DNA of 21,378 nt from Candidatus Micrarchaeota archaeon (GTDB lineage: Archaea; Micrarchaeota; Micrarchaeia; Norongarragalinales; UBA8480), in the NCBI GenBank assembly GCA_043805855.1, contig JAZDHP010000019.1:1-21378 (forward strand), given 5' to 3'. Numbering within the stretch: the first letter of the stretch is position 1; each line of letters opens with the position of its first letter. Below, in pieces: positions 13,610-21,377 of this stretch. The notes under the pieces are model-generated. The model saw only the letters and a list, made by a program, of their open reading frames with translations, searched no databases and was not told the DNA's origin. The position numbers and the translations under genes are program-made.

Positions 13610-14266
13610 TTACTTTTTTATATCTAACATTGGAAGCGTGCCAGTCTTAATCCAACCATTATATCGGTCTAGATTTCTTGGATTATTGCTTCCTATTAAT
13701 TCAAACCATTTTTTAGTGCATGCTATTCCACTAATTCCGACATCTCCGCTTGAATCATACGCAGGTAATCCAACTTCTCTAAGCATTATTTTAAGCTGTT
13801 TTCTCAATGGAGTGCTTTCACTAGATATTAGTACTAATGGTCGTCTATATTGTTCGGATTTACGTGCAGACATTGATCCATCTGTATCGAAAAGTCCCCT
13901 AATTACATTAAAGCGTTTCTCTAAGGGTAATTTCATGATCCATTTGGGAATTTCTATTTGTCCTTTTTTACCAACTGGAAAGTCTAAACTTGTTAATAGT
14001 TCTGCAAATTTTTTGTTGTTAATTACTGCATTTATTGTGTTTGTATGTTTGTCTTTATAGAAATACGCGTGTACGCCGAATCTTTTTAAAATCGGGTTTA
14101 TAAATTGAGTGAGGTATTCTAAATCTCTTGTTGCGTTTCCACTTATAAAAATTCGAAAATAATATCTATTGTTTGGTTTTTTGAATCTAACAATGCAACC
14201 GTCGCCCATCAAAACGCCAAAGAATTCGAGAAATTCGTCGCTTGTTGTTTCTATTTCGTTTAGCAC
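13610..14266 (-). CDS. Free-standing two-motif LAGLIDADG homing endonuclease-like protein
   Basis: EFFGVLMGDGC and NVIRGLFDTDGS, both keeping the catalytic Asp. No intein splicing motifs. GTG start. Confidence 0.88.
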   Translation of the reverse strand: MLNEIETTSDEFLEFFGVLMGDGCIVRFKKPNNRYYFRIFISGNATRDLEYLTQFINPILKRFGVHAYFYKDKHTNTINAVINNKKFAELLTSLDFPVGKKGQIEIPKWIMKLPLEKRFNVIRGLFDTDGSMSARKSEQYRRPLVLISSESTPLRKQLKIMLREVGLPAYDSSGDVGISGIACTKKWFELIGSNNPRNLDRYNGWIKTGTLPMLDIKK

Positions 14267-14403: not shown

Positions 14404-14538
14404 TGGACTCACCGGGATGTTCGAGCTTTTGAGAATTTCTTTTTTCCCAAGGCTTTTTTCTTTTGAAAGAAAAAAGGCTTATCGAACCCGGAGTCGCCCC
14501 CACGCCAAGGGGGTATGTTACCGTTACACCATGAGCCC
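14404..14538 (-). tRNA. tRNA-Ala(GGC) with a 63-nt intron at 59/60
   Basis: Exons 14538-14481 and 14417-14404 give GGGCTCA TG GTGT AACGGTA ACAT A CCCCC TTGGCGT GGGGG CGACT CCGGG TTCGATT CCCGG TGAGTCC A. G3:U70 and A73 alanine identity elements present. Full BHB: T-stem, TTCG/CGAA, bulges ATA and CAT, AGC/GCT. Confidence 0.93.
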
Positions 14539-14592
14539 ATTTTCGTGAAATTATTTGGGCGGCTAGATAATTATAATCCCTTTCTTGGTGGT

Positions 14593-18983: not shown

Positions 18984-19376
18984 ATGTCAGTTGAAAAAAT
19001 TTTTGGTCAAATGGGCGACCTTTCAAAAGGTAAGTACGTTCTCGTCGACGAGCACCCATGTAGGGTTATGTCGATGGACAAGAGCAAACCGGGAAAACAC
19101 GGTGCGGCTAAGGTCAACGTCGTAGCTATTAGTCTTCTCGATGGTTCAAAGCACTCTTTGATGAAGCCAAGCGACGCTGATATAGAAATTCCAATTGTAG
19201 AAAGAAAGAGGGCGCAGGTTGTCAGCGTAACTGGAACAACTTGCCAGTTAATGGACTTAACTTCGTTTGAAACCTTTGAAGCTACAATTCCCGAAGATAT
19301 GAAAAGCGAACTCGAAGCCGGCAAAGACATCCAGTACATGGCGACAATGGGAAGAAAGTTGCTGGGTAAGGATTAA
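18984..19376 (+). CDS. eif5a: Translation factor aIF5A (eIF-5A)
   Basis: SKPGKHGAAK hypusine-site motif, PCRV, QLMDL..FETFE; GAGTGA SD. Confidence 0.96.
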   Translation: MSVEKIFGQMGDLSKGKYVLVDEHPCRVMSMDKSKPGKHGAAKVNVVAISLLDGSKHSLMKPSDADIEIPIVERKRAQVVSVTGTTCQLMDLTSFETFEATIPEDMKSELEAGKDIQYMATMGRKLLGKD

Positions 19377-19438
19377 GTTTAGCTTCTTTTTCAGTTTAAT
19401 TTTTTTATTTATTTTTTATTTACTTGTTTATTTGTCTT

Positions 19439-20095
19439 TTATTCTTTATGCCTTAGTGTTTTGACTATTCGTTTCCAGATTCCGGGTCGCGGTTTCCGCA
19501 GTTCATAAGTTGGCTTGTCGGGAAAAACCGCGTTTGGAATTAGCCTCACTTTGTCGTGGCCGGCTTCTATAAAAGCGTGGTATGCACCGACTGCACAGCC
19601 GCCGGTTAGTGTGCTAGTTATTTGTCGCGGTAGTTTACGTTCATAATTACTTACTGCTTGTGAGTAATTCCTAGGCACTGTTGAATGAATGTTGCCATGT
19701 TCTATTGAAAGTTCTCCCGCGACTAGGATAGTTTTAACTTTTGCACTGCGCAACGCTTTATGAAGTGCTTTCCAGCCTGCGGTTGGTTGCGAGTCTTCAA
19801 GGTCGGTCTTAAGGTGAAATATGTTGGCGCTGGCTATAGCTTGTGCGCTTTGCAAGGCGTTTTCATTATCTTCCATTATAACTAGTGGAACTTTATAGCG
19901 GTGTTTTAGCCTTTGTACCACTTTTCTATATTGATTGAACTGCTTTTGAGTTGTGCCGTACTTTGTGCGTAAGAAGATACCATCAGGCATTTGCCCCGCG
20001 TTGAAAGACGGGTGGACTAGCACAATTACTTTTCCGCCGTGAGCTGTAACTGCTTTTCTAAATGCTCCCTGGTTTGTAAAAAAGTCAAGCGACAT
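19439..20095 (-). CDS. Basic hypothetical protein, possible isochorismatase/cysteine-hydrolase-like fold
   Basis: Likely start ATG 20095 (MSLDFF). KVIVLVHP, LRSAKVKTILVAGE...GGCAVGAY..FIEAG..KVRLIPNA resembles the cysteine-hydrolase C-terminal half. Confidence 0.5.
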   Translation of the reverse strand: MSLDFFTNQGAFRKAVTAHGGKVIVLVHPSFNAGQMPDGIFLRTKYGTTQKQFNQYRKVVQRLKHRYKVPLVIMEDNENALQSAQAIASANIFHLKTDLEDSQPTAGWKALHKALRSAKVKTILVAGELSIEHGNIHSTVPRNYSQAVSNYERKLPRQITSTLTGGCAVGAYHAFIEAGHDKVRLIPNAVFPDKPTYELRKPRPGIWKRIVKTLRHKE

Positions 20096-20148
20096 GAGAC
20101 AAATTAGTGCAAGTAGCTGTTTAATTGTTTTGCCTTTATACAACTAAG

Positions 20149-20490
20149 AAAAAATAGTTTCAGGATCGAAAGTTTCGATCCTGGGATCCATGCTGTGCGT
20201 TGTGGCGCAGGAGTCGGAAATCGGCTTCCGAACCGGCATAGTTAATCTCCTGAACTGCAGTTTGATGCACTCGGCGTTTATTTCAACTTTACAAAGAGCT
20301 CACGGATCCAGTCAAGCTGGGGTGAGATTCGTTAGGGTTGAAATTCTCTTGCGAGATTTGCCAAGTGCTTTTTCAGCCAAAGCAACGACTCAATCGAGAC
20401 CGAAGTCCCAAAAGGAAATTCCATTTTTCAATGGTTAAGCTTCATATAAAGCCGTGCTCTTTTGCAACGCATTTGCACTCGCGAGAGTAG
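20149..20490 (-). ncRNA. Candidate structured non-coding RNA/element of unknown class (~340 nt)
   Basis: Many helices: 20346-20355/20478-20487, 20280-20287/20337-20344, C(UUCG)G hairpin 20396-20409, GAAA hairpin 20421-20434, 11-bp hairpin 20161-20183 followed by U6. BRE-TATA at 20519-20505. Strand uncertain. Confidence 0.5.
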
Positions 20491-20500
20491 ACTACACATA

Positions 20501-20520
20501 GTTAAAATATAAGCTTTTCT
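20501..20520. promoter_or_regulatory. Probable divergent promoter region
   Basis: Minus strand GAAAAG-CTTATATTT (BRE+TATA). Plus strand TTAAAATA lies about 29 nt before the 20531 ATG (leaderless spacing). Confidence 0.5.
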
Positions 20521-20530
20521 TTTTACGTGT

Positions 20531-21172
20531 ATGTTTAAAGATAGGGTTGATGCAGGTAAACAGCTTGCAAAGAAACTTGAAAAGTATAGGCGAAATACAA
20601 TTGTGATGGGTATTCCGCGGGGTGGCTTGCAAGTTGCGTGGGCTGTTGCAAATAAGTTAAATTGTAAATTGGGCTGTGTGTTTAGTAAGAAGATTCCACA
20701 CCCATTTGATAGCGAAGTTGCAATTGGTGCTGTTTCTCTTGGTGGCGTTGTAGTTAATGAAGAGATAGTGACAGGTTCTCTAGTTGACCAGAGCTATGTT
20801 GAGCATAAGAAGAGGGAGCTTTTGCGGGAAATTAAACAGTTAGATTCTTTGTACCACAAGAGTGTTCCGCGGGTTGATTTTAAAGGTAAGGTTGTTTTGC
20901 TTGTTGATGATGGTATTGCAACTGGTGAAACTGTGAAAGCTGCGCTTTTAACTTTAAGGAAACAAGGGGCGGCTAAGGTAATACTCGGCGTTCCAGTTGG
21001 CCCGCAGTTAGTTTTGCAAGAATTGAAAAGAGATTTTGACGAAGTTGTGAGTGTTATTCAAGAAAGCGAGTTCCAGGCGGTTGGGCAGTTTTATAGAAAT
21101 TTTCCAGCTTTATCGCATGGCGAAGCTATAGCAATCCTGGAAAATAATCCGAACGTTTCGCAGGATTGCTAG
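20531..21172 (+). CDS. Type I phosphoribosyltransferase family protein
   Basis: MFKDRVDAGKQLA, GIPRGG, PRPP-binding VLLVDDGIATGET, AVGQFY..F. Confidence 0.92.
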   Translation: MFKDRVDAGKQLAKKLEKYRRNTIVMGIPRGGLQVAWAVANKLNCKLGCVFSKKIPHPFDSEVAIGAVSLGGVVVNEEIVTGSLVDQSYVEHKKRELLREIKQLDSLYHKSVPRVDFKGKVVLLVDDGIATGETVKAALLTLRKQGAAKVILGVPVGPQLVLQELKRDFDEVVSVIQESEFQAVGQFYRNFPALSHGEAIAILENNPNVSQDC

Positions 21173-21227
21173 TTGTAACATGCGTAAAGATTGTCAGACA
21201 ACTTTAGCATGTTGCTATAAGGCGCTT

Positions 21228-21377
21228 TTAGAATCCGAGTTGTTTTAAAACTATTCCAATTACAAATGCGAGTAAAATTAGCAAAATCGTTAAGTTCAAG
21301 TAGTTGATTTGCTTGACGTTGTGCAGTTCTTTTTCTAGATTGTCTAGTTTTTCTTTTTCGTAGTTAGTTTTTGCCAT
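21228..21377 (-). CDS. Small coiled-coil plus single-TM protein (49 aa; may extend beyond the window); not in the ORF track
   Basis: Hand translation MAKTNYEKEKLDNLEKELHNVKQINYLNLTILLILLAFVIGIVLKQLGF*. Confidence 0.6.
   Translation of the reverse strand: MAKTNYEKEKLDNLEKELHNVKQINYLNLTILLILLAFVIGIVLKQLGF

Follow-up and report, generated by a model that had tools for sequence, protein, structure and literature searches.

What is encoded in an intergenic stretch of archaeal DNA that is packed with potential helices, and how is its product made? The question is raised by Candidatus Micrarchaeota archaeon, a groundwater archaeon whose genome assembly (GCA_043805855.1) comprises 67 contigs and 1.03 Mb with a completeness of 92%. 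Positions 1 to 21,378 of contig JAZDHP010000019.1, the whole stretch of DNA analyzed here, are referred to as the window. The element in question sits in a 387-nucleotide (nt) gap of the window between two divergent open reading frames (ORFs), one of 234 amino acids (19439-20143, minus strand) and the other phosphoribosyltransferase-like (20531-21172, plus strand). It had been noticed in an earlier inspection of the letters alone (the sequence-only reading), which took it for an unassigned structured non-coding RNA (ncRNA) with its own promoter and terminator. The element is a structured ncRNA without a match among the described RNA families, and its conserved core is closed by a motif like the bulge-helix-bulge (BHB) of archaeal splicing substrates, relaxed at the 5′ site. 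It is probably a stand-alone gene, the precursor of which is cut at this motif by the endonuclease EndA and ligated by RtcB to give a circular ncRNA of 285 nt.

The first issue is whether the element is an RNA at all. The gap folds with −116.9 kcal/mol on the minus strand (z −5.19) and with −120.0 kcal/mol on the plus strand (z −3.89), and on neither strand was an equally good fold found among 100 dinucleotide shuffles. Contigs from RNA sequencing cover it: a 213-letter contig from an RNA-Seq run (X1) is identical to 20254-20466 with 0 differences, and a 204-letter contig from another RNA run (X7) lies on 20247-20449, both wholly within 20188-20472. Contigs of X1 and X7 leave the flanking genes uncovered, a lack to which no weight was given. 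At the gathering score, no family of Rfam 15 matches anywhere in the whole window; neither the archaeal RNase P RNA (RF00373) nor the archaeal signal recognition particle (SRP) RNA (RF01857) has a match there. A permissive local scan of 20050-20620 (E ≤ 10, 4227 families) gave MIR390 only, which scored 16.3 bits (gathering score 77) and lies on the trailer hairpin described below. At the locus ARAGORN found nothing either, and the flanks form no tRNA or rRNA. Together with the lack of conservation of an overlapping ORF, these results bear out the view of an unassigned structured ncRNA.

Could it instead be a circularly permuted or highly divergent version of a housekeeping RNA, SRP RNA or RNase P RNA? 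Thermoproteus offers a precedent (PMC4731332), and the candidates for these two RNAs elsewhere in the genome score under the Rfam gathering thresholds: the RNase P RNA candidate (C20:5180-5525), the sole match in the genome, has 50 bits against 84, and the SRP RNA candidate (C1:2668-2939) has 69.7 bits against 96.5. However, both lie on other contigs and align with the full models (positions 1-288, E 1.7e-13, and 1-317, E 6.4e-16, respectively), and the local scan returned no partial match to the element save the 16-bit microRNA family on the trailer hairpin. Thus, whether RNase P and SRP RNAs are accounted for elsewhere, a check suggested by the sequence-only reading, is answered by these two candidates; full-model alignments with scores well under gathering indicate that both RNAs are divergent in this lineage, and a permuted housekeeping RNA at the present locus is very improbable. 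The 5S rRNA is found on contig C29 with 76.8 bits.

Comparison with relatives provides the basis for all structural arguments. Three homologous sequence types are known outside the window. Of 40 relatives searched with BLAST, only G002 and G003, two genomes of the same genus, had significant matches, which are about 70% identical over query positions 39-335. The third type came from metagenome contigs scanned for patterns, where it is present on two contigs; another pattern match (L057) was set aside as chance, having no match to the model. The three types are 66-68% identical to the window and 86-98% identical among themselves. When one genome per species was scanned, the end motifs turned up at the G002 and G003 loci only. 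Searches with a covariance model (R1, used for all model searches, the structure of which partly differs from the manual structure below) located the RNA in 3 of 12 genomes of the family and in 3 of 68 genomes of the order, belonging to 1 of its 35 genera. In a class-wide sample of 151 genomes, there were two real matches and a third one of 42 nt (G137, 19.9 bits), which was rejected as chance because it lies inside a 1013-codon open frame; the other 148 genomes had no real match. A match in G008 (10.5 bits, E 0.36) was regarded as noise. No viral contig was matched, and an nhmmer profile run over 30 loci of aIF5A, a neighboring gene in relatives, recovered the known copies only. There was no match in G001, a 71% complete genome of the same genus, in which the aIF5A contig ends about 210 nt past the gene, so that the locus is not assembled there.

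On which strand does the RNA lie? It is resolved as the minus strand, because not a single A-C pair, as against 10-12 G-U pairs, occurs in the model for the three sequences other than the window, because the tetraloops GCAA, GAAA and UUCG, which are of the GNRA and UNCG types, can be read on the minus strand only, and because the G002 homolog folds better in the sense orientation (−82.3 kcal/mol, z −2.11) than in the antisense orientation (−69.4 kcal/mol, z +0.18). RNAalifold applied to three sequences did not separate the strands (−56.6 versus −55.9 kcal/mol). The opposite strand carries an 82-codon ORF, which raises the possibility that a small protein is encoded and that the structure is incidental. 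In G003 as in the window, this ORF is indeed open, and it starts and stops at matching positions. However, only the first 17 or so residues are alike, and the conservation pattern is that of paired helices. Moreover, G002 has only 25 codons before the frame is shut and the metagenome homolog 40, and the lengths of the indels are not multiples of three. With the frame thus broken in two of the three homologs, a coding role of the ORF was rejected, and practically no weight is left for a small protein. Short ORFs on the sense strand shift frame between homologs.

A secondary structure was derived manually from the four sequences and counted on an alignment fitted to the model (A8). It consists of 85 pairs in 14 helices. 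The paired fraction of the 336 cells of A8 is 94.6%, compared with 87.8 ± 1.0 in shuffles, and 20 pairs are changed on both sides, compared with 7.6 ± 1.9; neither value was reached by any of 500 shuffles. When the partners were slid by 1-3 columns, 35-46% of the cells were paired and 1-6 pairs were changed on both sides. The strongest helix is P5, which is 100% paired and in which 8 of the 9 pairs are changed on both sides; P7a has 6 such changes among 16 pairs, and covariation is also seen in P4, P6 (U-A to C-G) and P7c. Several of these helices had been recognized from the letters and are kept in the homologs: the three segments of the long arm P7 (P7a, b and c; ATTTCAAC/GTTGAAAT, CTCAC/GTGAG and CCAG/CTGG) covary, as does GGGAC-UUCG-GUCUC (P4), in which stem and loop are swapped together (the loop being UUCG in the window, GAAA in the metagenome copy and GCAA in the other two homologs), and the 4-bp core of CCAUU-GAAA-AAUGG (P3) is conserved. 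Others have to be given up or doubted. A TGCTTT/AAAGCA helix clashes with P5, the best-supported one, and is absent from the homologs. A 10-bp long-range stem (20346-20355/20478-20487) dissolves, its first arm being the conserved local hairpin P6 (CUC-GCAA-GAG, or CCC-GCAA-GGG in the metagenome homolog) and its second arm falling into a non-conserved leader. The pairings ATGC/GCAT and TGCG/CGCA are possible, but they compete with long-range closing helices that fit the circular junction described below.

The predicted ring folds into three domains (Table 1). Two of them have variable, covarying arms. Hardly any variation is seen in the third, the 3′ domain of roughly 60 nt, or in two single-stranded blocks. 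Strain variants seen in the sequencing runs agree with this fold for the most part: of 10 substitution sites listed inside the ring, six (20232, 20360, 20363, 20393, 20397 and 20398) keep or create minus-strand pairs, the last three of them in the 5′ domain, and one variant turns a GAAA loop into GUAA, retaining the GNRA type. The variant at 20384 lies in a doubtful helix, and that at 20232, found in runs X2 and X3, concerns a stem CGGU/GCCG that rivals the inner hairpin P9: it supplies a third pair type, C-G, beside U-A in the three homologs and U-G in the window. An H-type pseudoknot combining CGGU/GCCG with CGGAA/UUCCG is possible.

How is the core closed? The conserved region begins and ends at a long-range pairing of its two ends. 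From the outside, this motif consists of an outer helix h, which is GA/UC in the window and GG/CC in the other sequences, a 3′-strand bulge of 3 nt, a central 4-bp helix H (GUGC/GCAU), the trinucleotide AAA on the 5′ strand and an inner helix h′ of 7-8 bp (UGCGUUG/CAAYGCA). The bulge between H and h is GGA in the window and GAA in the three homologs. H is paired and invariant in all four sequences, and hence shows no covariation, and AAA is likewise invariant in all four. The outer helix covaries, with G-C in three sequences and A-U in one; h′ (P1c) has eight pairs, six of them invariant and one alternating between G-C and G-U, with 96.9% of its cells paired. The two strands follow the two-fold order of a BHB: h, GUGC, AAA and h′ on the 5′ strand, and h′, GCAU, GGA and h on the 3′ strand. 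In the BHB as described, the splice sites are located in 3-nt bulges on either side of a 4-bp helix (PMC4090602, PMC5829648). As given in the former source, the 4-bp helix ends at anticodon position 35 and the canonical intron is located at 37/38 (PMC4090602), from which we infer that cleavage takes place after the second nucleotide of each bulge. The strand of the RNA, its correct closing helices and the splicing-endonuclease motif at its ends with the circular junction had all been missed by the sequence-only reading.

A junction between the two ends is found in run X2. A 314-letter contig of depth 18 from this run maps to 20247-20470 and then to 20186-20262, with a joint that goes back 285. 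Two letters at the joint fit either side, so that a joint from 20472 to 20188 is allowed, which corresponds to cleavage after the second nucleotide of each bulge; the closing helices and the bulges had been derived from the alignments before this joint was found. The length of the contig, 314 = 284 + 30, is as would be expected for a closed cycle of 31-letter words. Contigs from a DNA run (X3) continue into both flanks without a joint.

Does this contig represent a circular RNA? Alternatively, the element might be a real minus-strand ncRNA that is linear, the circular contig reflecting a tandem duplication in the DNA of another strain or an effect of assembly. A tandem duplication in the X2 strain would give an identical contig, and X2, although its library source is metatranscriptomic, is flagged "RNA? 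(probably DNA)." The joint is seen on a single contig from a single run, and in the window a linear transcript would be terminated by the T6 run behind the trailer hairpin. On the other hand, the range of the joint includes the canonical cut positions of an independently derived motif, the ends share two letters only, so that 31-letter words should not have been joined falsely, and all four genomic copies of the element are single. A linear RNA is thus unlikely, but it is the most serious competitor of the circular one.

Which enzymes would produce a circular RNA? Both are encoded by the genome. EndA is represented by a 388-amino-acid ORF on contig C10 (L060:883-2049, plus strand), which has the N-terminal domain PF02778 and the catalytic domain PF01974 (78.5 bits) and also holds a second, weak endonuclease-like stretch, and RtcB (PF01139, 476.5 bits) is encoded on contig C59. 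As a separate observation, the RtcB sequence is contained in one 960-codon open frame (C59:12806-15532, minus strand; L062/L063), in which about 1.4 kb lie between profile positions 1-50 and 45-426, a layout to be expected from an intein-like insertion. Relaxed forms of the BHB are reported to be cut only by the (αβ)2 and ε2 types of the endonuclease, and one broad-specificity type is described as known only from Micrarchaeota (both PMC5829648).

The maturation of the RNA may be envisaged as follows. A promoter consisting of a B recognition element (BRE) and a TATA box would drive the synthesis of a precursor of about 330 nt, from around 20483 to around 20149. The 5′ and 3′ ends of the core would then pair into the relaxed BHB, the tRNA-splicing endonuclease EndA would cut after the second nucleotide of each bulge, and RtcB would join the ends to form the 285-nt ring (20188-20472), leaving a short leader and a hairpin-bearing trailer as by-products. 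In archaea the transcription start lies about 26 nt from the center of the TATA box, and the BRE/TATA-like motif of the window (20504-20518, minus strand) is situated about 26 nt upstream of a start predicted by this spacing near 20480-20483. Thus, the promoter claimed by the sequence-only reading is present as a motif and presumably acts as one; the divergent plus-strand gene starting at 20531 may use this AT-rich box as well. The three homologs share a box of their own, AAAACCTTTTTATTCG, 31-36 nt upstream of the conserved core, which is unlike that of the window. The claimed terminator survives in part: the 11-bp hairpin (20161-20183) and the T6 run exist, but the hairpin more probably belongs to the 3′ trailer of a processing stem. 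All three other types have a hairpin at this position, of unrelated sequence, and the T-run occurs in the window only.

In the three homologs, trailer sequence beyond a hairpin is paired with the predicted leader (CGUAUC/GAUACG or GCGUAU/AUACGC). Such pairing would also suit the idea that the ring is a discarded spacer or a processing intermediate, the functional product being the ligated leader and trailer, or an RNA that is made linear again in the manner of archaeal rRNA, of which the circular precursor intermediates are described as being re-opened (PMC12918454, PMC10351888). However, in the sequence of its leader, trailer and hairpin, the window is completely different from the other three, and conservation as well as covariation is limited to the excised core. 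This makes it quite improbable that the ring is only a by-product.

Several points weigh against a ring made by EndA and RtcB and against the structure on which it is based. In the motif, AAA is opposed by two unpaired nucleotides (CA or AA), forming a 3 × 2 internal loop rather than a clean bulge, and h has only two clean pairs in the window; when the flanks are folded together, the BHB register is the minimum-energy structure in only one of the four homologs. Concerning the fold, the sample comprises four distinct sequences, two of which are 98.3% alike, and A8 was fitted to a model that shares most of the helices with a structure taken from the same sequences, so that both controls, shuffled and slid, flatter the structure. 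H, P8 and P9 are invariant and carry no covariation information, P2 has two competing pairings, and 2 of the 10 strain-variant sites (20332 and 20368) break terminal pairs. Concerning the sequencing data, the joint from 20470 to 20186 has three possible placements, and contigs can show neither strand nor ends nor abundance. As for function, no lead came from the neighbors, from family matches or from antisense pairing: 11-mers of the invariant blocks had chance-level matches only in the whole genome, giving no target. Finally, the RNA is confined to one genus as far as R1 detects, which fits either a recent origin or a divergence so fast that it is beyond the reach of the model.

How does a circular RNA of this kind relate to known ones? 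The archaeal rings known to arise from a BHB are tRNA and rRNA introns, pre-rRNA intermediates and one permuted SRP RNA. The last, the circular permuted SRP RNA of Thermoproteus tenax (Plagens et al., 2015; PMC4731332), is the closest published case. As described there, it has its own TATA box, a 23-nt leader and a BHB formed by leader and trailer, which is cut by EndA to give a circular product. The present element would resemble it in being a stand-alone gene with its own TATA box, a leader/trailer BHB and a ring of about 300 nt. It differs in that the T. tenax RNA is a member of the SRP family that binds SRP19 and SRP54, whereas the present one has no match to any family and coexists with a separate SRP RNA candidate, and in that cleavage was demonstrated in vitro for T. 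tenax and is predicted here. The processing stems of archaeal pre-rRNA, as presented in PMC7714728, PMC10351888, PMC12918454 and PMC12558985, would share with the element the pairing of leader and trailer round the mature RNA, the cleavage of a BHB and circularization; unlike them, the element encloses no rRNA and is a single gene with its own putative promoter outside the rRNA operon. Archaeal tRNA and rRNA introns (PMC4090602, PMC12558985) would share with it the geometry of the motif, the enzymes and the circular form of the excised product, and the same two sources mention a tRNA-Trp intron that forms a stable circle and contains a C/D box sRNA. In contrast to these introns, the "exons" of the element are short, not conserved and not parts of a tRNA or rRNA, and the excised length of 285 nt exceeds the 11-129 nt quoted for tRNA introns (PMC4090602).

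We therefore have to ask what the product is for. With confidence that falls a little short of even, we suggest that this is a gene dedicated to a functional circular RNA as its final product and that this RNA represents a new class, being neither an intron nor an rRNA intermediate nor a permuted housekeeping RNA, with the 3′ domain of about 60 nt as a binding or catalytic core and the arms holding its shape. The contrast between the covarying arms and the almost invariant 3′ domain suggests a specific binding core; more tentatively still, the ring might resist exonucleases and serve as a scaffold or a binding platform, contacting a protein partner via this domain. If the suggestion of a functional ring is true, this would be the first such case in DPANN (Micrarchaeota) archaea, for which no description of such an RNA was found in the open-access papers searched. 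The tRNA-splicing machinery would then serve generally in the maturation of stand-alone ncRNAs, and DPANN archaea, with their reduced genomes, would be seen to invest in lineage-specific structured RNAs. The element would also offer the little-studied endonuclease of this group a concrete substrate, with defined cut sites and a 285-nt product.

The genomic surroundings bear on one more alternative, that is, a cis-acting riboswitch-like leader of the downstream minus-strand gene. A gene on the same strand follows the element in three of the four contexts. It is, however, the unknown 234-amino-acid ORF in the window and an ApbA/PanE-like gene in G003 and the metagenome copy, while in G002 there is none and aIF5A is convergent; with three downstream situations across four loci and no match to any riboswitch family, a leader of this type is hardly credible. 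The context of the stand-alone RNA gene itself is simplest in G002, where it lies between aIF5A and the gene for a 48-amino-acid membrane protein. In the window, in G003 and on the metagenome contig, differing genes are inserted on each side of the RNA, and in other genera of the family (G004, G010 and G006) aIF5A and the small membrane-protein gene abut with no element between them. Since the flanking genes vary and abut without the element in other genera, the RNA gene is a genus-level feature in a variable spot. Among the neighboring proteins examined, none is RNA-related as a possible partner would be.

Table 1. Positions in the window of the RNA gene, its predicted parts and the overlapping ORF.
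Feature	Position	Strand	Basis or remark
BRE/TATA-like promoter AAAAGCTTATATTTT	20504-20518 (TATA 20505-20512)	−	Direct reading; putative function
Short 5′ leader ("5′ exon")	20473-20483	−	Start predicted from TATA spacing; end (second A of AAA) from the junction
BHB-like motif, 5′ half	20472-20480	−	h GA 20479-20480; H GUGC 20475-20478; bulge AAA 20472-20474
BHB-like motif, 3′ half	20185-20193	−	H GCAU 20190-20193; bulge GGA 20187-20189; h UC 20185-20186
Mature circular RNA, 285 nt (predicted)	20188-20472	−	Joint of the X2 contig
h′/P1c, 5′ arm UGCGUUG	20465-20471	−	Pairs with 20196-20202
h′/P1c, 3′ arm CAACGCA	20196-20202	−	Pairs with 20465-20471
5′ domain	20388-20440	−	P2b GCUUA 20436-20440 / UGAGU 20388-20392, around P3 and P4
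P3 hairpin	20421-20434	−	Inside P2b
P4 hairpin, UUCG loop	20394-20411	−	Inside P2b
Unpaired block UUGGCUGAAAAA	20369-20380	−	Invariant in 4/4 sequences
Central domain	20267-20368	−	Closed by P5 GCACUUGGC 20360-20368 / GCCGAGUGC 20267-20275
P6 hairpin	20346-20355	−	Within the central domain
Long arm P7	20280-20344	−	Within the central domain
Nearly invariant 3′ domain ACUGCAGUU	20208-20261	−	Comparison of homologs
P8 CAGGAG/CUCCUG	20247-20252 / 20208-20213	−	In the 3′ domain; invariant
Inner hairpin P9	20214-20231	−	In the 3′ domain; invariant
Alternative stem CGGU/GCCG	20232-20235 / 20222-20225	−	Competes with P9
Trailer hairpin, 11 bp	20161-20183	−	Hairpin at the same place in homologs, sequence unrelated
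T6 run, likely archaeal terminator of the precursor	20149-20154	−	Window only
Antisense ORF, 82 codons	20190-20438	+	Judged non-coding

Some further observations were made at the locus and elsewhere in the window. The interval from aIF5A to the gene for the membrane protein of about 48 amino acids (18984-21377 in the window; loci L004, L005 and L059) is a variable spot, the inserts of which differ by species: the unknown 234-amino-acid ORF and the phosphoribosyltransferase in the window, the ApbA/PanE-like gene in G003 and a methyltransferase-like gene on the metagenome contig. In G011 (L031, about 1130-1250), the gap downstream of aIF5A holds an apparent intron-containing tRNA, as judged by eye. 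Farther away in the window, ARAGORN assigns a 92-nt tRNA-Ala (GGC) to 14448-14539 on the minus strand. By eye, it is canonical from the 5′ arm of the acceptor stem to the T-loop and is then followed by an A/U-rich hairpin, with no matching 3′ part of the T-stem and acceptor arm, so that it may be a split or unusually interrupted tRNA gene. An ORF with a LAGLIDADG_3 domain (13610-14263, minus strand) is located just downstream of it.

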